DNA of 64,000 nt from an uncultured Gemmatimonadaceae bacterium (lineage in GTDB: Bacteria > Gemmatimonadota > Gemmatimonadetes > Gemmatimonadales > Gemmatimonadaceae). Within the stretch, counting starts at the first letter, position 1. Each line of letters starts with the position of its first letter. The notes beneath the pieces are model-generated. The model was not told the DNA's origin. It worked only from the letters and a program-made list of their open reading frames with translations, and made no database searches. The stretch spans positions 544,001 through 608,000 of the forward strand of contig CAWHHI010000020.1 in assembly GCA_963829055.1 (NCBI GenBank). The letters are read 5' to 3'. Shown here piece by piece: positions 16,596 through 26,003 of the stretch. Position numbers and translations under genes: made by a program.

Positions 16596-17123
16596 ATGAC
16601 GCCACCGACAGTTCGACTCGTGCCGTACGACAGCACGTGGCCATTGGAGTTCGCCACCGAAGCCGAGCGTATCGAGCGAGCGTGTGCCGGCCTGCCGATC
16701 AGGCTCGAACACATCGGGAGCACGTCGATTCCCGGGCTGTCCGCGAAGCCCGTGATCGACATTCTCGCCGGCCGACCCGGCAACGTTCGCGGCACAAGTT
16801 ACGTCGAGGCGTTCAAGCAGCTGGGCTACGAGCACAAGGGTGCGTTCGGTATTCCGGGACGAAACTATTTCCGCCGCGGCACGCCGCGCACGCATCACGT
16901 GCATCTGGTGAACTGGTCGAGCGACCTGTGGAGCGATCACCTTCTCTTCCGTGACTACCTCCGCATGCATGCCGAGGTTGCGCGCGAGTACGAGACGCTC
17001 AAGCGAGAGCTCGCCGGACTGTACTTGCACGACAAGGAGCGGTACACCGACGCCAAGGGCCCCTTCGTTCGTTCGATCGTGCGTCGCGCCCGCGAAGAAG
17101 GCTTCGCCGACGCCTACCGCTGA
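16596..17123 (+). CDS. GrpB/UPF0157-family nucleotidyltransferase-fold protein
   Basis: EHIGSTSIPGLSAKPVIDI, HLLFRDYLR, YTDAKGPFV. Confidence 0.93.
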   Translation: MTPPTVRLVPYDSTWPLEFATEAERIERACAGLPIRLEHIGSTSIPGLSAKPVIDILAGRPGNVRGTSYVEAFKQLGYEHKGAFGIPGRNYFRRGTPRTHHVHLVNWSSDLWSDHLLFRDYLRMHAEVAREYETLKRELAGLYLHDKERYTDAKGPFVRSIVRRAREEGFADAYR

Positions 17124-18385
17124 TGCCACCGCGTAGCCCACGTCGCTCGGCCGCACAGTCGAAGGCCGACAAACTGACTGGGACGATCGAGCCGACGACG
17201 GCGTCCGCTGAGCTCGCGACGCTCACCGCACTCGCTCAGGCGCTGAGCGGACCGGCCGATCTGGCGACGTCGCTCGAGGCCGCGCTCGCGACCGTTGCCG
17301 ACCTGCTCGGTCTCGAGACGGGATGGGTGTGGCTGCTCGACGCGTCGAACGAGCCGACGCTCGCCGCCGCTCGCGCTCTGCCGCCGTCGCTGCGTGATCA
17401 CCCTGACGCGATGCACGGCGACTGCTACTGTCTCAAGACGTTTCGTGCAGGTGATCTTCGCGGTGCCGCGAACGTGAACGTCGTCTGGTGCAGCAGGCTC
17501 GCGCTGCTCCACGACGATGACGGAGGCGACGACGACGTCGGTCGACTGCAATGTCACGCGAGCGTCCCGCTCGCGGTGGGTGACCGCAGGCTCGGGATGT
17601 TGAACGTCGCGAGCCGTGACTGGCGTGTGCTCTCGGATGCAGAGCTGAGCCTGTTGACGACTGCCGGTGCGCTCGTGAGCCTCGCCGTGGAGCGCAGTCG
17701 GCTCGAGGCCGCGACCGTTCGCGCGCGCGCCGCGGAAGAGCGCAATCGCCTTGCGCGTGAGATTCACGACACGCTCGCCCAGGGACTCGCCGGCCTCACC
17801 ATGCATCTCGAGGTCGCGGACGCACTCACGAGTACCAGCGCGCCCGGCGACGAGCGACTCGGTGCCGCTGTCAGGCGGGCACTCGCGCTTGCGCGGTCGA
17901 CACTCGACGAAGCGAGACGGTCGGTGCTGGATCTGCGTGAGGCACCACTCGAGGGGCGAACGCTTCGGGAGGCGATCGACGCGCTGGCCCACCACACCCG
18001 GGCCATGAATGCGGAGCGCGTCGAGATCGAGACCGCCGTGTCCGACGAGGTGGACGACGGCCTAACGCCGGCCATCGCCACCGGTCTCTACCGGGTGGCC
18101 CAGCAGGCCGTCGCCAACGCGCTGCAGCATGCCCGAGCGCGACACATCCTGGTGCGCCTCACGCGAGACACCGGCACCCTCCGGTTGCGCGTCGAGGACG
18201 ACGGGACCGGCTTCGATGCGGGTGACGTATCGGCCGACCGCTTCGGGCTCGTCGGCATGCGGGAGCGCGCGCACCTCATCGGCGGCACGCTGACGGTGGA
18301 GAGCGCGCCGGACGCCGGGACGGCGATCAATGTGGTGGTGCCGGTCGACGTTAGGCGTGGGCGTCCGCGGCACGGGCAGCCATGA
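17123..18385 (+). CDS. Cytoplasmic GAF sensor histidine kinase (HisKA_3) with Cys-rich GAF (AirS/YhcY-like)
   Basis: EERNRLAREIHDTLAQ, VEDDGTGF, FGLVGMRER; GAF has CYC-x19-CSRL...CHASVPL; no transmembrane segment. Confidence 0.92.
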   Translation: MPPRSPRRSAAQSKADKLTGTIEPTTASAELATLTALAQALSGPADLATSLEAALATVADLLGLETGWVWLLDASNEPTLAAARALPPSLRDHPDAMHGDCYCLKTFRAGDLRGAANVNVVWCSRLALLHDDDGGDDDVGRLQCHASVPLAVGDRRLGMLNVASRDWRVLSDAELSLLTTAGALVSLAVERSRLEAATVRARAAEERNRLAREIHDTLAQGLAGLTMHLEVADALTSTSAPGDERLGAAVRRALALARSTLDEARRSVLDLREAPLEGRTLREAIDALAHHTRAMNAERVEIETAVSDEVDDGLTPAIATGLYRVAQQAVANALQHARARHILVRLTRDTGTLRLRVEDDGTGFDAGDVSADRFGLVGMRERAHLIGGTLTVESAPDAGTAINVVVPVDVRRGRPRHGQP

Positions 18386-19047
18386 GCAACCCTGACACGC
18401 CAGGGCGGATTCGCATCGCCGTCGCCGACGATCACCCCGTTGTTCGCGACGGCCTGATCGCGATGCTCGAGACGCAACCCGATTTCACGATCACGGGCAG
18501 CGCGGGAACCGGCGCCGAAGCGCTCGCGCTCGTACGGTCGAGCGACCCCAATGTCCTGCTGCTCGACCTCGAGATGCCGGACCTCGATGGCGTGGCGGTG
18601 CTGCGCCGCCTGCGCGAAATGAACGGACGTGTGCGTGCGATCGTGTTTACTGCCTTCGACACCGACGAGCGCATCATCTCGGCCGTGGAGGCCGGAGCGG
18701 CCGGGTATCTCCTCAAGGGCGCGCCGCGCGCGGACGTGTTCGCGGCTGTGCGCGTGGTGGCCGGCGGCGGCTCGCTGCTCGCGCCACTCGCGGCGTCGGC
18801 GGTGCTGCGTCGCGTCCGCGGTGAATCGCCTCCAACCACCGCGACGAGTCCGGGCCTAACGCCGCGCGAGCGGAGTGTGCTCGAGCACCTGGCGCGTGGG
18901 CTCGGCAACAAGCAGATCGCGGCGCGACTCGGGATCTCCGAACGAACGGTCAAATTTCATGTGAGCTCGGTGTTCACGAAGCTGGGCGCCGCGAACAGAA
19001 CGGACGCCGTGGCGCGGGCCGCGCAGGCCGGGATCATCCAGCTATAG
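18382..19047 (+). CDS. NarL/LuxR-family response regulator
   Basis: ADDHPVVRDG, LLDLEMP, LTPRERSVL...NKQIA...TVKFHVS; ATGA overlap with the kinase. Confidence 0.96.
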   Translation: MSNPDTPGRIRIAVADDHPVVRDGLIAMLETQPDFTITGSAGTGAEALALVRSSDPNVLLLDLEMPDLDGVAVLRRLREMNGRVRAIVFTAFDTDERIISAVEAGAAGYLLKGAPRADVFAAVRVVAGGGSLLAPLAASAVLRRVRGESPPTTATSPGLTPRERSVLEHLARGLGNKQIAARLGISERTVKFHVSSVFTKLGAANRTDAVARAAQAGIIQL

Positions 19048-19116
19048 CATTCGACGCGTCGCAGCGAGCGGTGCTCAGTGACGGGATGTGCTTCGGGCAG
19101 GTCGGCAGCGAGCGCT

Positions 19117-21786
19117 TCACTCCTCCCGCATGGCCGTGAGGACGTCCACGTGCAAGGCATCACGCGCCGGCAGATAACACGCGAGCACAGCCGCCGCCGT
19201 AAGTAACAGCGCCACGCCCGCGTACGTCGGCAGATCGAGCGCCGTGACGCCGAACAGCAGCGTCGCCATGTAGCGAGACAGCGCCACCGCTCCCGTCAGG
19301 CCCACGACGAGCCCGATCACCACGGGCCGCATCCCCTGGGAGATGATGAGCCGGAGCACGCTCGACGTACTCGCGCCGAGCGCCATGCGCATACCGATCT
19401 CCGTGCGACGGCGCGACACGCTGTACGACAACACGCCGTACACACCGGCAAGCGCGAGCAAGAGCGCGACAGCCGCCAGCGACGCGAGCAGCAGCATCGT
19501 GAACCGGCGCGCGGCGACTGACTCTCCCACCATGTCGTCGAGTGTGCGGACGTTCGATAACGGCGTCGTCGGCGCCACCTCCTTCATGATCGCGCGGACG
19601 CTCGGAATGAGCGCCGACGGGGCCGAGTTGGTGTGCACGATGAAATGCACCGGCGTCATCCCGCCGCCATTGTACGGCATGTAGACCGCGAGTGACGGCG
19701 TGTCGGCGAGATCCCAGTCGCGCGTGTCGCCGGCGACGCCGATGACCTCCGCGATGTCCTCGTTCTGCCCCTTCCAGAGCACGATGTGGCGACCAACCGC
19801 GCTTTCACCGGGCCACAGACGTTCCGCGACGCGATGGCTGATGATGACGCGCCATGGCTTCCCGATGACATCCTGGTCGGTGAAGTCGCGCCCCGCCTCC
19901 AGCGGCACACCCATGGTCTTGAAGTAGTCACGCGTGATCATACGCCAGCCCGCCCACGGAATCGCATCGCGCGCGGGTGACGGCTTGTCCTGGGCGGCGA
20001 ATCCCATGCCGGTCCCGATGCCGCGGAGTAACCCCATGCTCACCCCCGCGACGCCCTGCACCTGCGGCAGCGCCTCGAGGCGCGTCTTGAGCTGCGTCAT
20101 CGCGGCGGTGAATCGCTGCGCGTCCGCGTCGTTCTGCGGGCCCGGCAGCGTCACCTCGAACGTGACGCGGTTCTCCGTCTTGAAACCGCGGTCGACGGCG
20201 AGCACCGCGCCGAAACTGCGAATGAGAAGCCCAGCGCCTACGAGCAGCACGAGCGACAGCGCCACCTCGATGCTCACGAGCGCGGCGCGCAGGCCAACCG
20301 TGCGACGATTGCCGACGACGCTCCGTTCGCCCTCCCTGAGCGCGGCGACGATGTCGTGGTACGGCGTCCGTAGCGCCGGGACGAGCCCGGTGATGATGCT
20401 CGTGAGCAGCGCCGCGCCTAACGTCAACGCCAGCACCGCCCCGTCCACCGACACCTCGGCCAGGCGCGGAATGTCTCCGGGGTCGAACGCGCGCAGCAGG
20501 CGCACGACGCCGAACGCGATCCCCAGTCCGACGGCCGCACCAACAAGGCCGAGTAACAGCGACTCGGCGACCGCCGTCTGCACGATGCGCCCCCGCGACG
20601 CACCCAGCGCCGACCGCACCGCACGCTCACGAACGCGACCCGTGGATCGCGCGAGCAGCATGTTCGCCAGGTTCACGCACGCGATGAGCAGCAGGAAGCC
20701 GACCGACGCCATGAGAACCCACAGTGCGCGGCGCAGCGAGTCGCTCGCGACCCAATCTGCGGAAGGCCCAACGGTGATGCCCATGCCTTTCGCTTGCGGG
20801 TACTGACTCGCGAGTTGGCGGGCGACGCGCTCCAGATCCGCGTGCGCGGCCGCAACCGTTACGCCAGGCTCGAGACGTCCAACGACGGTGAGCTCGAAGC
20901 TGTCCCTGTCCTCACGCGGCCCGCGCGTCAGTGGAAGAAACAGGTCGCCCGCGTCGAGCCACGGCGTGCCGGGTGGCAACACGCCGATCACGCGGTAGCC
21001 GCTCCCACTCAGCGTGATCGTGCGCCCGACGATACCACGGTCGCCGCCGAACTGCGTCGTCCACAACCGATGGCTGAGGATGGCGACGCGCGTGTCCGCA
21101 CCGGCGCGATCCTCTCCGTCGGCCAGTGTCCGGCCGGCGAGGGGCGTGACGCCTAACGCGCGGAAGAATCCCGTGGTGACATACGCTACGTTCAGCCGCT
21201 CCGGGCTGTCCTTCCCCGCCAGCGTTATCGACCCCCACGTGATCGCGCCCATCGCGGTGAGCGTGCGATTCATGTCCTGGACGTCCCAGAAGTTCGCGTG
21301 CGTGAACGACGACTGGGTCCAGCCGCGGTCCTGACGCGCCTCCCAGATCTGAACGAGGCGGTCCGGCTCCGGGAACGGCAGCGGACGGAGCAGCACGGTG
21401 CGCACGACGCTGAAGATGGCCGCGTTGGCGCCGATACCTAACGCCAGCGTCAGCACGGCGATCGCGGTGAACGCCGGCTGCCGGATCATCGCCCGGGCGC
21501 CGGACCGCAGGTCAGCCACGAGGGTCGTCATCTTCTCACTCCCGTTGAGTGTCGGTTCACGCACAGGTGGTGCAACCAGAGGCCCGCCGGTGAGCAACGC
21601 GAGGCGCAGCCGCAGCGCGAAACCGGGGACCTGACGACGGTACCATCGGTTGGCCGATCGACGACCGTCACGCGTTAGGCGCAGGACATACCCTTCACGA
21701 AGCTCCTCGAGCGCCTCGTCCCGCACGGCTTCGGGGAGCAGCAGACGAAGCACGGCGGCGGAGAGCCGCGGCGGCGTGGCTGTCAT
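19117..21786 (-). CDS. Duplicated orphan ABC permease (ADOP, 2x MacB_PCD+FtsX) with PPRL-type N-terminal prefix
   Basis: [47 protein letters not shown]-coupled to the upstream PadR. Confidence 0.93.
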   Translation of the reverse strand: MTATPPRLSAAVLRLLLPEAVRDEALEELREGYVLRLTRDGRRSANRWYRRQVPGFALRLRLALLTGGPLVAPPVREPTLNGSEKMTTLVADLRSGARAMIRQPAFTAIAVLTLALGIGANAAIFSVVRTVLLRPLPFPEPDRLVQIWEARQDRGWTQSSFTHANFWDVQDMNRTLTAMGAITWGSITLAGKDSPERLNVAYVTTGFFRALGVTPLAGRTLADGEDRAGADTRVAILSHRLWTTQFGGDRGIVGRTITLSGSGYRVIGVLPPGTPWLDAGDLFLPLTRGPREDRDSFELTVVGRLEPGVTVAAAHADLERVARQLASQYPQAKGMGITVGPSADWVASDSLRRALWVLMASVGFLLLIACVNLANMLLARSTGRVRERAVRSALGASRGRIVQTAVAESLLLGLVGAAVGLGIAFGVVRLLRAFDPGDIPRLAEVSVDGAVLALTLGAALLTSIITGLVPALRTPYHDIVAALREGERSVVGNRRTVGLRAALVSIEVALSLVLLVGAGLLIRSFGAVLAVDRGFKTENRVTFEVTLPGPQNDADAQRFTAAMTQLKTRLEALPQVQGVAGVSMGLLRGIGTGMGFAAQDKPSPARDAIPWAGWRMITRDYFKTMGVPLEAGRDFTDQDVIGKPWRVIISHRVAERLWPGESAVGRHIVLWKGQNEDIAEVIGVAGDTRDWDLADTPSLAVYMPYNGGGMTPVHFIVHTNSAPSALIPSVRAIMKEVAPTTPLSNVRTLDDMVGESVAARRFTMLLLASLAAVALLLALAGVYGVLSYSVSRRRTEIGMRMALGASTSSVLRLIISQGMRPVVIGLVVGLTGAVALSRYMATLLFGVTALDLPTYAGVALLLTAAAVLACYLPARDALHVDVLTAMREE

Positions 21787-22112
21787 GACGGCTCCGCGAG
21801 CGGATCGCCGGCGCGCCACAACCGCTCGAACGTCCGCCGTGACTCGGCGAGCTTGGTCTTGCCCGCCGCGGTGATCTGAAACTCGCGGCTCCCTCGCCCG
21901 CCCTCGCCGGGTCGGGCTTCGCGCTTCGACGAGCGCGCGTAGCCGCGCTGCTCGAGTCGCCTCAACGCCACGAACACCGCGGCGGGTGAGATCGTGCGGC
22001 CCGTCGCCGCCTCGAGCTCGAGCACGATCGGCGCGCCGCGAGACCGGCCGCCGAGTCGAACGAGGGCGAGCATCACGTGATGTTCGAACTCGCCGAGGGC
22101 CATGCGTGACAT
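21783..22112 (-). CDS. PadR-family transcriptional regulator (LGEFE subtype)
   Basis: LGEFEHHVMLAL, AVFVALRRLEQRG, FQITAAGKTKL. Confidence 0.88.
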   Translation of the reverse strand: MSRMALGEFEHHVMLALVRLGGRSRGAPIVLELEAATGRTISPAAVFVALRRLEQRGYARSSKREARPGEGGRGSREFQITAAGKTKLAESRRTFERLWRAGDPLAEPS

Positions 22113-22185
22113 GCGTTGGCTCCTGCGTTGGTCGGCTGGATCAAACTTGCAGTGATAGTATGGTCGCGCATCGGACGAGGCAATA

Positions 22186-22203
22186 CCTGTCCGAATGGAC
22201 AGG
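22186..22203. promoter_or_regulatory. Perfect inverted repeat CCTGTCC-N4-GGACAGG, candidate regulator site
   Basis: Lies in the divergent padR/SDR intergenic region, followed by a partial copy CTGCCCGAT at 22209. Confidence 0.55.
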
Positions 22204-22314
22204 GCGCTCTGCCCGATCGCTCAATGCCGGGAGGCTCGGAGCGACACGATCGTTCGATCACCGGTGGTCGTCACCGGACATCGAACGGACGGAGTCTCAC
22301 AAAGCCTTGTCGCC

Positions 22315-23055
22315 ATGACAGCCAACATCGACCGAACGGCGCTCATCACCGGCGCCTCACGCGGACTCGGCCTCGCGCTCTCACGCGCGCTCGCCACGCG
22401 TGGATGGAATCTCATTCTCACCGCTCGCGACCCGGAGCGGCTGCGACTCGTGCGGGACGAGCTCGCCCGCGTCACACACGTCGCCGCGATCGCCGGTGAC
22501 GTCATCGACCCCGCACATCGGAGCGCGCTCGCGGTACTCGCGCGCGGTCACGCCGGGCTCGACGCGATCGTGAACAACGCCGGCGTGCTCGGACCGAGCC
22601 CGCAGCCGACACTCCTCGAGTATCCGCTCGAGGCGCTCGTCGAGGTGTTTCTCGCGAACGTGCTGGCGCCGCTCGCCGTCATCCAGGAACTCCGAGGCGA
22701 GCTCAAGCCCGGCGCCCGGATCATCAACGTGACGAGCGACGCCGCGGTCAACGCGTATCCAGGCTGGGGCGGATACGGCGCGAGCAAAGCGGCGCTCGAG
22801 CAGCTCTCGGCGGTTCTCGCGGCGGAGAATCGCGACGTGCGTGTGTATTCCGTCGATCCGGGAGACATGCGCACGGACATGCATCAAGCGGCATATCCAG
22901 GCGAGGACATCAGCGACCGGCCACTCCCCGAGTCGAAGGTGCCGGGATTCATTGCCGTGCTCGAGGGGGATCTGCCGAGCGGGCGGTATGTCGCCTCGGA
23001 CGTCGCGGATGGTGCGCGCTCTCACGCGTTGACATCCGCATCGGTGGCCGCATGA
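22315..23055 (+). CDS. SDR-family oxidoreductase
   Basis: ITGASRGLG, VNNAG, YGASK; ATGA-coupled to the QueA-like gene. Confidence 0.93.
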   Translation: MTANIDRTALITGASRGLGLALSRALATRGWNLILTARDPERLRLVRDELARVTHVAAIAGDVIDPAHRSALAVLARGHAGLDAIVNNAGVLGPSPQPTLLEYPLEALVEVFLANVLAPLAVIQELRGELKPGARIINVTSDAAVNAYPGWGGYGASKAALEQLSAVLAAENRDVRVYSVDPGDMRTDMHQAAYPGEDISDRPLPESKVPGFIAVLEGDLPSGRYVASDVADGARSHALTSASVAA

Positions 23056-24221
23056 GTCACGCGCTTCGAGCACGACCCATCGAGCTCGTTGCGCGGACGC
23101 CAGACGAGTCGGTCGACTTCGAGTCGCTCGACTTCGAACTTTCCGACGCGCTGCTGGCGCACGAGCCGCCGGAAGCGCGTGGACTCTCGCGGGACCAAGT
23201 GCGCCTGCTCGTGACCGATCCGACCAATGATAGCGTTAGGCACGCCGTGGCCCGCGACCTGCCGACCTACCTCGACGCCGGCGATCTGCTCGTCGCCAAC
23301 TCCAGCGCGACGATCAATGCGGCACTCGATGCGTGGCGCCCAGCCACAGGTGGCGCATCTGACGAGTTGATCGCGCTGCATCTGTCGTCGCCGGTGCCGG
23401 GTGCGGCGACTGATGATCGCTGGGTCGTCGAGCTACGCCGGTTGACGCCCGACGGTACTCGGCCGCTGCTCGACGCGCGTGCTGGCGAGCGGATCGGACT
23501 CCGCGGCGGCGCATTCGCGACGCTGATCGCTCCGTTCAGGCGTGGTGCCGCGGGCGGCCCGCCTAACGACCAAACCCGCCTCTGGGAAGCCGAGCTCTCT
23601 TACCCGGGCGGTGCACTGGCGTACGCCTGGGAGTTCGGGTCGCCCATCCGCTACGGCTATGTGCACGACCGCTGGCCACTCGCCACGTACCAGACGGTAT
23701 TCGCCGATGAACCGGGAAGCGCCGAGATGCCTTCTGCCGGCCGACCGTTCACGCCGGAGCTGGTCGAACGGATCCGATCGCGCGGCGTGGCGATCGCATT
23801 GCTGACGCTTCACACAGGCGTGGCGAGCCTCGAGTCAGGCGAGTCGCCGTATCCCGAGCGCTACCGCGTTCCGCGCGAGACCGCGATCGCGGTGAATCGC
23901 GCCCGTGCCGCTGGCGGCCGCGTCGTCGCCATCGGGACGACGGTCGTGCGCGCGCTCGAGACGGTCGCGGACATCGACGGGACCGTGAGCGCCGGTGAGG
24001 GGTGGACGGATCTCGTGATCACGCCGGAGCGTGGCGTACGAGCGGTGGACGCCCTGCTCACCGGGTTCCACGAGCCGCGTGCATCACACCTCGCGATGCT
24101 GGAAGCCATCGCGGGGCGACGGCATCTCGCCGCCGCGTACGGCGCCGCGATCCGAGAGCGGTATCTCTGGCACGAGTTCGGCGATGTCCACCTGATCATG
24201 CGCCGATCGGGAGCGGGGTGA
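23052..24221 (+). CDS. Divergent QueA-like protein (SAM:tRNA ribosyltransferase-isomerase fold)
   Basis: GDLLVAN, YQTVFA, TLHTG, VAIGTTVVRALE, LLTGFHEP, YLWHEFGD. Canonical PLPPYI and AAPTAGLHF are replaced by PIRYGYV and AEMPSAGRPF. Confidence 0.88.
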   Translation: MSHALRARPIELVARTPDESVDFESLDFELSDALLAHEPPEARGLSRDQVRLLVTDPTNDSVRHAVARDLPTYLDAGDLLVANSSATINAALDAWRPATGGASDELIALHLSSPVPGAATDDRWVVELRRLTPDGTRPLLDARAGERIGLRGGAFATLIAPFRRGAAGGPPNDQTRLWEAELSYPGGALAYAWEFGSPIRYGYVHDRWPLATYQTVFADEPGSAEMPSAGRPFTPELVERIRSRGVAIALLTLHTGVASLESGESPYPERYRVPRETAIAVNRARAAGGRVVAIGTTVVRALETVADIDGTVSAGEGWTDLVITPERGVRAVDALLTGFHEPRASHLAMLEAIAGRRHLAAAYGAAIRERYLWHEFGDVHLIMRRSGAG

Positions 24222-24266
24222 TAGCTTGCGTCGGCCACGCTACGCGCCATTGCTCTCATCGCCTCC

Positions 24267-26003
24267 ATGCGCCGACTCCATTCGCTATCGCCTCTCATCG
24301 CCAGCGCGCTCATCGCGTGCACTCGTGCCGTGCCGGGCACGTCCACGCCGGTCGCCGCTGGCGAGCTGCCACGAACGCACGTCGCCAGGCCGACGACGGG
24401 CGCGATAGACCCGGCCGATCTCATGACGCGCTTGTACGTGCTCGCCGACGACTCGATGCTCGGGCGCGAAGCGGCGACGCTGGGCAACGTGAAGGCGACG
24501 GACTACATCGCGCGCGAGATGCAGCGCATTGGACTCGCGCCCGGCGGCGAGAACGGGACGTACTTCCAGACGGTGCCGGTGCTGATCGCGCGAATAGACA
24601 CGACGCGCACGATCTCCGTCGAGGGAACGCGACTCGCGCTCGGCAGCGACGTGCTGCCGTTCTCGGCCAACACGGCGGCGACCATGCTGCCACGTGGTGC
24701 GACGATCCGCTCGGTGGACGGCGCGCAGGTCGTCTACGGCGGGCTGCTCGGCAGCGGCACGCTCATCGCCCCCGAGCAAGCGGCGGGCAAGGTGGTCGTG
24801 TTCACGGTCGCGCCCGATTCGACCGGACGGCGCGACTACCGCTTCTACCTGAAAGGGCCGCTCACGCAGTACGGCGACGCCGCCGGCATCGCGGCTGTCG
24901 TGCTGGACGTCGTGCCGCCTAACGTGCTCAATCGCTTTCGCGGCGCGGCGATGCGCATCCATCGCGACGATCCGACAGGAACGGCGCCGACCATCATGCT
25001 GGTGACACCCGCGGCCGCGCAGCGGATGCTCGGTGTCGCGCAACTCGACCGAATTAGCGTCGGGACTGTCGGGAAGACGCTGAGTGGGACGGTCGCGATC
25101 ACAGAGGCGCCCACGCTGTATCCGGCTCGCAACGTGATCGGTGTCCTGGCCGGCTCCGACCCCGCGCTGCGCGGCCAGTACGTCGCCGTCGGTGCGCACA
25201 ACGATCACATCGGCCTAACGAATCGTCCGCTCGACCACGACTCGGTGGAGGCGACGAATCGCGTCATCCGCCGGCAGGGAGGTCAGGACCCGGTGCGCGC
25301 GGCGACGCCGGAAGAATCGGCTCGCATCACCCAGCTCCGCGACAGCCTGCGTCAGGCGCACGGCGGCGTGCGGATGGATTCCGTGAACAACGGCGCCGAC
25401 GATGACGGCTCGGGCACGGTCGCGATGCTCGAGATCGCGGAGCGGTTCGCCACGGCGCCGCATCCGAGGCGGTCGCTGATCTTCGTCTCGCACACGGGCG
25501 AGGAGAAGGGGCTCTGGGGGTCTGACTGGTTCACGGACCACTCGACCGTTCCACGCGACTCGATCGTCGCCCAGTTGAACATGGACATGGTGGGGCGCGG
25601 GAAGGCGACGGACGCGATGGGTCGCGGCCCGAACAACATCCAGATGATCGGCTCGCGCCGCCTGTCCACGCAGCTCGGCGATCTCATCGACTCGTTGAAC
25701 ACGGCGCGCACGCCGCACATGGACCCGGACTACTCGTTCGACACGCCGGGCCATCCGCTCAATCGGTACTGCCGCAGCGACCACTATATGTATGCGCGCT
25801 ACGGCATCCCGATCACCTACTTCTCGCTCGGCTACCACACGGGATATCACCAGGTCGTGGATGAGCCGCAGTACATCGACTACGACCACATGGCCCGGAT
25901 CGCCAGCTTCGTGCACGACATTGCCGAGGCGGTGGCGAACCGACCGCAGCGTCTGATCGTGGACAAGCCAAAGCCGGATCCAAAGGCGGGTTGTCGGCAA
26001 TGA
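24267..26003 (+). CDS. M28-family peptidase, probable lipoprotein
   Basis: Lipobox-like LIAC; GAHNDH, NGADDDGSGT, GEEKGLWGS, NMDMVGR, RSDH, YHQVVD. Confidence 0.92.
   Translation: MRRLHSLSPLIASALIACTRAVPGTSTPVAAGELPRTHVARPTTGAIDPADLMTRLYVLADDSMLGREAATLGNVKATDYIAREMQRIGLAPGGENGTYFQTVPVLIARIDTTRTISVEGTRLALGSDVLPFSANTAATMLPRGATIRSVDGAQVVYGGLLGSGTLIAPEQAAGKVVVFTVAPDSTGRRDYRFYLKGPLTQYGDAAGIAAVVLDVVPPNVLNRFRGAAMRIHRDDPTGTAPTIMLVTPAAAQRMLGVAQLDRISVGTVGKTLSGTVAITEAPTLYPARNVIGVLAGSDPALRGQYVAVGAHNDHIGLTNRPLDHDSVEATNRVIRRQGGQDPVRAATPEESARITQLRDSLRQAHGGVRMDSVNNGADDDGSGTVAMLEIAERFATAPHPRRSLIFVSHTGEEKGLWGSDWFTDHSTVPRDSIVAQLNMDMVGRGKATDAMGRGPNNIQMIGSRRLSTQLGDLIDSLNTARTPHMDPDYSFDTPGHPLNRYCRSDHYMYARYGIPITYFSLGYHTGYHQVVDEPQYIDYDHMARIASFVHDIAEAVANRPQRLIVDKPKPDPKAGCRQ

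Follow-up and report, generated by a model that had tools for sequence, protein, structure and literature searches.

A QueA paralog coupled to a short-chain dehydrogenase/reductase in a putative redox-regulated operon outside queuosine synthesis

The locus described here lies in a 64,000-nucleotide stretch of contig CAWHHI010000020.1 (positions 544,001 to 608,000 of the forward strand) from an uncultured Gemmatimonadaceae bacterium, and this whole stretch is referred to below as the window. The subject is a group of four genes, which encode a soluble sensor histidine kinase, a NarL/FixJ-type response regulator, a short-chain dehydrogenase/reductase (SDR) and a protein with the fold of the queuosine enzyme QueA, together with an inverted repeat upstream of the SDR gene. 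A preliminary description drawn from the letters of the window had listed the kinase with its CYC-x19-C pattern, the NarL-type regulator, a PadR-permease block, the repeat and an SDR gene translationally coupled to a QueA-fold gene, and all of these were found at or near the places it had given. The end of the repeat region had been put at 22217 and is corrected here to 22203. The features of the locus are as follows.

16596-17123, plus strand: GrpB-family gene (PF04229, 170 bits)
17123-18385, plus strand: soluble sensor histidine kinase, with GAF_2 at residues 46-190, HisKA_3 at 206-275 and HATPase_c at 320-408 (Pfam)
17423-17557, plus strand: candidate metal or Fe-S ligand site in the kinase GAF domain (Cys101, Cys103, Cys123, Cys144, His145)
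18382-19047, plus strand: NarL/FixJ-type response regulator, receiver and GerE helix-turn-helix (Pfam and NCBIfam)
19117-21819, minus strand: ADOP-family duplicated permease (TIGR03434, 875 bits, cut-off 622)
21783-22112, minus strand: PadR-family regulator of the presumably inserted permease pair (PF03551, 29.5 bits)
22186-22203, strandless: perfect inverted repeat CCTGTCC-GAAT-GGACAGG, 112-129 nucleotides (nt) 5' of the SDR start
22251-22287, plus strand: imperfect 16-nt inverted repeat in the presumed SDR 5' leader (arms 88% complementary)
22315-23055, plus strand: classical SDR (PF00106, 123 bits; open reading frame open from 22195)
23052-24221, plus strand: QueA-fold paralog of 389 residues (PF02547, 254 bits, full length)
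23643-23750, plus strand: motifs PIRYGYV (residues 198-204) and EMPSAGRPF (residues 225-233) of the QueA-like protein
24267-26003, plus strand: M28 peptidase (open reading frame listing and family scans)

Related loci were sought with the paralog-specific peptides YLWHEFGD and PGSAEMPSA in a collection holding one genome per species, which yielded at least 598 stretches, at least 591 of them confirmed. The locus counts below refer to the best 80 of these confirmed stretches, many of which are kin and not independent samples, and they rest on tblastn, since gene calls based on GC content at third codon positions missed or merged genes in about one-fifth of the loci. The 80 loci span Gemmatimonadota, Chloroflexota, Actinomycetota, Acidobacteriota, Deinococcota, Bacteroidota and Dormibacterota; individual loci, genomes and contigs are denoted by L, G and C numbers where they must be told apart.

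Is the QueA-like protein a second QueA or a different enzyme on the same fold? QueA (EC 2.4.99.17), the tRNA preQ1(34) S-adenosylmethionine ribosyltransferase-isomerase, turns preQ1-tRNA, which TGT supplies, and S-adenosylmethionine into epoxyqueuosine-tRNA, adenine and methionine. The scores of the QueA-like protein against the NCBIfam QueA models all fall under the respective cut-offs (NF001140, 191.1 versus 324 bits; TIGR00113, 159.4 versus 267.45; NF002398, 109.3 versus 588). A canonical copy is present in the same genome in a ruvB-queA-tgt cluster on contig C4, where queA scores 429 bits, and QueF is encoded on contig C3. The preliminary description had pointed out that the window holds no tgt or que genes; in a genome scan that covered TGT, PF02547 and QueF, TGT and the second PF02547 gene lie on C4 and QueF on C3. 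Across Gemmatimonadota, PF02547 was matched in all 101 sampled genomes, 100 of them above its cut-off, with scores that apart from some fragments lie mostly in the canonical range of ~350-450 bits, and G000 and G186 alone showed an extra copy, of 247-254 bits. In a maximum-likelihood tree built from 111 rows, after removal of 4 rows whose match contained stops and with canonical rows from three phyla only, 77 paralog rows and 34 canonical rows lie on opposite sides of one branch with support of 100/100 (ultrafast bootstrap, SH-aLRT), so the earlier suggestion of a non-canonical QueA-like enzyme withstood the phylogenetic comparison that could have overturned it.

The sequence changes that set the paralog clade apart are concentrated and well conserved. 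The canonical PLPPYI is replaced by PIRYGYV and AAPTAGLHF by AEMPSAGRPF, as the preliminary description had recognised; the queA gene of the same genome keeps the canonical motifs, and the two altered motifs are conserved throughout the paralog clade. At seven positions (I199, Y201, A224, E225, M226, S228 and R231) the 77 paralogs agree to at least 90% on a residue other than the one conserved in canonical QueA. In total, 19 positions are conserved within each clade and different between them, clustering in the two signature motifs and in a C-terminal YLWHEFGD, while the same residue is kept at 90% or more in both clades at 39 positions. Most of the conserved polar positions of canonical QueA are among those shared, namely R47, D78, N83, Y213, Q214, H254 and E269, and further T296, T297, R300, E303, H340 and D378. 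Over 85 sequences from seven phyla, 49 positions are invariant. The AlphaFold model of the QueA-like protein (pLDDT 90.5) matched only the QueA structures 1VKY, 1YY3 and 1WDI in Foldseek, with E values of ~1e-25 and 28-32% identity, and the ESM Atlas returned generic names only or nothing. The 77 paralogs have a median charge of -9 and an isoelectric point of 5.8, as against -4 and 6.2 for the 34 canonical QueAs, a gap so small that it speaks neither for RNA binding nor against it. Taken together, scores, tree and motifs identify the QueA-like protein as a separate paralog and not QueA.

Two further PF02547 genes deserve mention in their own right. A Saprospiraceae genome (G005) holds, besides a canonical queA of 452.5 bits and a paralog of 261.3 bits, a third gene of 319.7 bits at G005:C1:2115165-2116349 (L116), which falls on the canonical side of the tree on a very long branch. 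The canonical queA of another Gemmatimonadota genome, at G200:C1:1899925-1900976, is matched as two neighbouring segments that differ in frame (positions 2-232 and 231-322), probably owing to a frameshift or a sequencing error.

The role of the paralog can be approached through genomes in which it stands alone. PF02547 was found in 47 and TGT in 18 of 151 sampled Actinomycetes genomes, and the two were never found together; the 47 carriers include G040, a genome flagged as unpublished. Full-length PF02547 matches in this class score 202-257 bits, and three genomes gave partial matches only (50-182 bits). QueF was detected in none of five paralog carriers tested, in which QueC gave only partial matches of 21-35 bits. 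Three actinomycete isolates (L028, L038 and L040) hold the paralog as their sole PF02547 gene and lack TGT. Because QueA has no substrate without TGT and preQ1, the QueA-like protein is not a queuosine enzyme in these genomes, and the non-queuosine role put forward in the preliminary description is strongly supported, with a canonical queA-tgt cluster elsewhere in the window's own genome. The source annotations nevertheless name the paralog proteins 'S-adenosylmethionine:tRNA ribosyltransferase-isomerase'. The 18 TGT-bearing Actinomycetes genomes have no PF02547 gene of any kind, as does a Corynebacterium control, a pattern compatible with salvage of queuine or a precursor without QueA.

The partner of the paralog is almost fixed. 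In 77 of the 80 loci the gene directly 5' of the QueA-like gene, in the same orientation, encodes an SDR orthologue (45-84% identity), and the SDR stop and QueA-like start overlap by 4 nt in 53; at two of the three loci without the SDR, the contig ends at the QueA-like gene. The window shows the same overlap, ATGA, at this junction and also at that between kinase and regulator. The SDR most likely starts at 22315, the point from which its homologues align and at which both L004 and L012 have an ATG. It carries the glycine-rich TGxxxGxG, NNAG and Ser-Tyr-Lys motifs of classical SDRs, and S141, Y154 and K158 are invariant, and N115 nearly so, in 67 aligned orthologues. Among solved structures it is closest to YciK, YIR035C and sepiapterin reductases, from which its subfamily is distinguished by a conserved C-terminal DPGDMRT...PGEDISDRP.

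Longer fused forms were also encountered, 18 matches in which several join regulator, SDR and QueA-like domains; these form 17 single-member clusters and one of five members (P0129, PF02547 with PF01464), L064 is among the 18, and they are most likely read-through or gene-calling artefacts. In four Amycolatopsis loci (L040, L060, L066 and L083) the SDR gene is immediately preceded, in the same orientation, by an NCS1 nucleobase-type permease gene, and genes for an NMT1/THI5-like binding protein and an ABC ATPase lie 3' of the pair. These transporter neighbours, confined to one genus, may hint at a heteroaromatic acceptor.

The kinase and regulator of the window belong to well-defined families. 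The kinase matches the NarX/DesK class of HisKA_3 kinases (PF07730, 55 bits; PF02518, 53 bits) and the regulator the NarL/FixJ class (PF00072, 86 bits; PF00196, 79 bits). No membrane helix was found in the kinase, the highest Kyte-Doolittle score over 19 residues being 1.35. Its cysteines stand at positions 101, 103, 123 and 144, in agreement with the CYC-x19-C pattern, and Cys101, Cys103, Cys123 and His145 are invariant in 127 of 127 aligned kinases of the window type, Cys144 being kept in 123, in an alignment made up mostly of close relatives with 4 rows from other phyla. Such invariance is compatible with a metal or cluster site, and we consider it likely that kinase activity is set by the state of a metal or Fe-S cluster bound at the Cys/His site. 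Orthologues of the window-type kinase adjoin SDR-QueA-like pairs in Gemmatimonadota, Chloroflexota, Bacteroidota, Acidobacteriota and one metagenome-assembled genome of Rubrobacteraceae. Two sensor types can be recognised among the pair-adjacent kinases, the window type with C[YW]C-x19/20-C and an actinobacterial type; the former pattern was seen in L004, L012, L013, L018, L044 and L058, in four phyla, and the kinases of L008 and L117 are grouped with it by their match to the window-type sensor domain.

A NarL-class regulator is also known in AirR of Staphylococcus aureus, and the preliminary description had likened the kinase to its partner AirS. AirS, according to excerpts of two reviews (PMC4601167, PMC8774646), holds a [2Fe-2S] cluster through Cys-X7-Cys-X-Cys-X17-Cys. 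The likeness is borne out in part, as the window kinase shares the N-terminal C-x-C followed by a distant cysteine and the NarL-class partner, whereas the first cysteine of the AirS motif is missing, the spacing is x19 instead of X17, and Cys144 and His145 appear as further conserved candidates.

The candidate operator through which the two-component system would control the SDR-QueA-like operon is the inverted repeat at 22186-22203, upstream of the SDR gene. The arms CCTGTCC-N4-GGACAGG are kept with a different spacer in L004 and L012. In L117, a locus without PadR that belongs to a different genus of this order, CCTGTAC-CGAC-GGACAGG stands between the genes for regulator and SDR, and related repeats occur in L044 (CTGTAC-CAAA-GTACAG) and L008 (CCTGTAC-GAAG-GTACGGG). 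At least one CCTGT[AC]C heptamer is present 5' of the SDR gene in all 8 loci with a window-type kinase, as compared with 11 of 67 others, and the degenerate pattern CTGTMC-N4-GKACAG has a single match in the entire genome of the window, at this operon. Because the repeat is kept in L117 without PadR, the heptamers track the kinase type and the site is unique in the genome, the repeat probably serves the NarL-type regulator, and not PadR, as operator. Its weight lies in conservation at the same place in orthologous loci, not in its rarity. A DosR-type box was set aside as an interpretation of the repeat, since the half-sites of such a box would face the opposite way. The imperfect repeat at 22251-22287 has a 5' arm, GATCGTTCGA, that is kept in L004 and L012, where it is able to pair with a different downstream partner. 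An Rfam scan of 22100-22340 gave no match, and a sigma-70 consensus scan of 21700-24400 found no promoter-like site.

How general is this mode of control? A census by domain-specific tblastn within 4 kb of the pair in the 80 loci found a GAF kinase with a NarL regulator at 31, SoxR at 14 and a SufR-like protein at 15, with too little flank at 5. The preliminary description had drawn its four genes together into one system, and their co-occurrence elsewhere is thus confirmed by the 31 loci with kinase and regulator beside the pair and by their contiguity in L117. Characterised relatives of the SoxR and SufR-like proteins are Fe-S proteins. The SoxR proteins here carry CIGCGCLSLxxC and score 191.6 and 176.1 bits against an NCBIfam equivalog cut-off of 116.9, and soxR is divergent to the SDR-QueA-like operon in the SoxR-linked loci. 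SufR-like proteins match TIGR02702 over the full length at scores under its cut-off (104.6 and 93.7 versus 178.8), and their gene either follows the QueA-like gene in the same direction after 39-96 nt or lies upstream in divergent orientation. Redox control, which had been proposed from the window kinase, is therefore supported by association, with SoxR or a SufR-like protein replacing the two-component system in other lineages.

Each type of regulator is accompanied by its own upstream motif. Of 14 upstream regions linked to SoxR, 12 contain TTGACTT[ACG]AA, a sequence absent from all 60 others, and it opens a palindrome such as GACTTAAAC-ATTA-GTTTAAGTC. The motif [AG]ATAAA is found in 11 of 14 SufR-like-linked regions as against 3 of 60 others, several having ACAAG-N-CTTGT palindromes in GC-rich genomes, and a box of the GGTCCTAGGACC type is found in 9 of 29 two-component-linked regions as against 0 of 45 others. 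Five of five SoxR-linked genomes have one SoxR above the cut-off and one genome-wide box match, both at the operon, with 0 matches for the reversed control and with a pattern that was derived from the sites it then found. Turning to the window itself, neither SoxR nor a SoxR box is present, the two-component system standing in its place; the SoxR arrangement was found in 14 related loci.

The genomes with a single SoxR and a single box (G004 and G256-G259, with loci L073, L065, L015, L069 and L077) belong to Acidimicrobiia and Acidobacteriota, and the SoxR regulon there may, to judge from these matches, consist of the SDR-QueA-like operon alone. An AT-rich element, AATAAA..ACAAG-N-CTTGT..TATATT, lies ~45-55 nt before the SDR start and occurs only where a SufR-like gene is adjacent (L019, L025-L029, L035, L037, L047, L049, L052, L059 and L068). 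It could serve as operator for a SufR paralog with targets other than suf genes.

The remaining genes of the window are set apart by their distribution. Among the 80 loci, PadR and ADOP occur only in the two closest, L004 and L012, and because L117 has kinase, regulator, SDR and QueA-like genes contiguous on one strand without them, we regard the PadR-ADOP pair as a later insertion that split the module, not as a member of it. A short element, AACTTGCAGTGATAGTATGGTC, at 22144-22165 just 5' of padR is near-identical in L004 and L012, where the flanks have diverged, and may be a PadR operator or promoter. The GrpB gene, whose stop shares 1 nt with the kinase start (TGATG), is also 5' of the kinase in L012 and in none of the other 79 loci; it is possibly co-transcribed with the kinase, as a lineage-specific addition at the head of that operon. 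By tblastn, neither the M28 peptidase nor the 745-residue gene upstream was found in any of the 80 related loci.

Comparison with characterised systems helps to define what is shared and what is new. Known SoxR regulons of non-enteric bacteria such as Pseudomonas and Streptomyces are small sets of oxidoreductases, monooxygenases and pumps. The 14 loci with a divergent SoxR equivalog and a palindrome overlapping TTGAC resemble such regulons, whereas the window uses a two-component system instead. The SufR-like proteins share with SufR an ArsR-type helix-turn-helix and the C-terminal cysteine pattern; unlike SufR of suf operons, their gene is third in, or divergent to, the SDR-QueA-like operon and not placed before sufBCD, and none is present in the window. 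Excerpts of a survey of SAM-binding proteins (SAM, S-adenosylmethionine) give QueA as the family for ribosyl transfer from SAM (PMC1282579), and two further papers describe the QueA reaction as delivering an epoxy-dihydroxycyclopentane ring from SAM (PMC5699537, PMC9092360). The paralog shares with QueA the two-domain fold and the 39 conserved positions, and differs from it in its separate clade, sub-cut-off scores, changed motifs, occurrence in genomes free of TGT and QueF, SDR partner and redox-type regulators. Literature searches on a QueA paralog, an SDR-QueA-like pair or a SoxR link to it returned canonical QueA only, from a coverage in which subscription journals are mostly absent.

On balance, we hypothesize that the GAF kinase and NarL regulator act through the repeat to control a coupled SDR/QueA-paralog operon that works outside queuosine synthesis and probably uses SAM on a non-tRNA acceptor under redox or Fe-S stress. 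A cytoplasmic sensor, here the GAF kinase with its three-cysteine and histidine site and elsewhere SoxR or a SufR-like protein, would report a redox or Fe-S signal, whereupon the phosphorylated regulator would bind the repeat and switch on the two-gene operon. The QueA-like enzyme would then split SAM, releasing adenine and methionine, and attach the remaining five-carbon unit, derived from ribose, to a nucleophile other than preQ1-tRNA, and the SDR, of NADP(H) type, would reduce a carbonyl of the acceptor or of the product. SAM cleavage is likely because the catalytic core of QueA is kept; the signature motifs are altered, and the acceptor would therefore be a different one. The pair could either disarm a redox-active compound or make a protective metabolite.

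Several observations weigh against this proposal. The use of SAM, the acceptor and the SDR reaction are deduced from homology, and the sequence matches in the PDB held no ligand-bound QueA structure that would place the SAM-binding residues; the regulation of the operon is likewise read from adjacency and motifs only. The four-cysteine motif of AirS does not occur in the kinase, which has no cysteine 8 residues before Cys101. The actinobacterial pair-adjacent kinases have an N-terminal GAF-like region with few or no cysteines, and a cysteine-based sensor is therefore not general. Of the 75 loci with flanks long enough to judge, 15 have no regulator of the three types in the 4 kb around the pair, and L046 has kinase, regulator and QueA-like genes without the SDR. 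The repeat is not unusual by itself, with 1 match in the window at up to one mismatch as against 0.31 expected, and its exact form has 1 match in the 7.78-Mb genome where composition predicts ~2. In the window, 3 kb of inserted genes part the regulator from the SDR operon. To these must be added the kinship among the 80 loci and the derivation of the SoxR-box pattern from its own sites, as diverged boxes elsewhere would escape it.

Alternative explanations differ in which part of the proposal they give up. The most conservative would make the paralog a true, if diverged, QueA isozyme that still makes epoxyqueuosine-tRNA, perhaps as a back-up that tolerates stress, with the SDR and the regulators as mere neighbours. 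The common fold and the 39 core positions would suit such an enzyme, and the window genome, G004 and G005 do have TGT and the queuosine pathway, hence the substrate; in the Actinomycetes carriers, with TGT in 0 of 47 and QueF in 0 of 5, that substrate cannot exist, and the separate clade, the sub-cut-off scores, the 19 residue switches that include both signature motifs and the SDR partner fixed in 77 of 80 loci make an isozyme highly improbable. We give equally little credence to the idea that the changed signature motifs reflect a loss of catalysis, leaving the QueA-like protein to serve the SDR as a subunit for binding or regulation, given 49 invariant positions in 85 sequences and the retention of most conserved polar residues of QueA.

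A different objection concerns the regulators, which could be unrelated to the SDR-QueA-like operon, their adjacency being historical and the repeat belonging to a divergent PadR-ADOP promoter. The inserted 3 kb and the position of the repeat in an intergenic region shared with padR are what one would then expect, and yet L117, which has no PadR-ADOP, retains the repeat between regulator and SDR genes, the same kinase type adjoins the pair in four further phyla with related heptamers in 8 of 8 loci versus 11 of 67, and the repeat site is unique in the genome, so that we think an accidental neighbourhood improbable. Harder to set aside, if still rather unlikely in our estimation, is a small specialised-metabolite cassette in which the pair would build a ribose-derived cyclopentane from SAM for signalling or protection and would neither modify nor detoxify an incoming compound. 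According to the papers cited above (PMC5699537, PMC9092360), the QueA reaction does form an epoxy-dihydroxycyclopentane ring out of SAM, and among Actinomycetes the pair, with its dedicated regulators, is common (47 of 151 genomes); against this, no further biosynthetic genes recur in the 80 loci, where the recurrent neighbours are regulators and a few transporters, and control of the SoxR type makes at least equal sense for a response to redox-active compounds, whether external or internal. We therefore retain the proposal of a sensor-controlled SDR/QueA-paralog operon that acts on a non-tRNA acceptor.

More speculatively, the pair may be a hitherto unnoticed, widespread stress module and the second known use of SAM as a donor of its ribosyl group (as a carbocycle), here onto a small molecule. 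Such a module would be the main output of Fe-S-based sensors, namely SoxR, the SufR-like repressor and the Cys/His GAF kinase, and would neutralise redox-cycling compounds or make a protective cyclopentane metabolite; we regard this broader picture as tentative and put it forward as a possibility we would not yet expect to hold. The appearance of the operon as sole target makes the role of SoxR in some Acidimicrobiia and Acidobacteriota directly testable. The proposal would also correct a systematic mis-annotation, since the paralogs are named as tRNA ribosyltransferase-isomerases even in genomes unable to make the tRNA substrate, and the branch concerned is common, with at least 591 confirmed stretches in a collection of one genome per species and 47 carriers among the 151 sampled Actinomycetes genomes. 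A second, functionally distinct branch of the QueA fold would widen the known chemistry of SAM.

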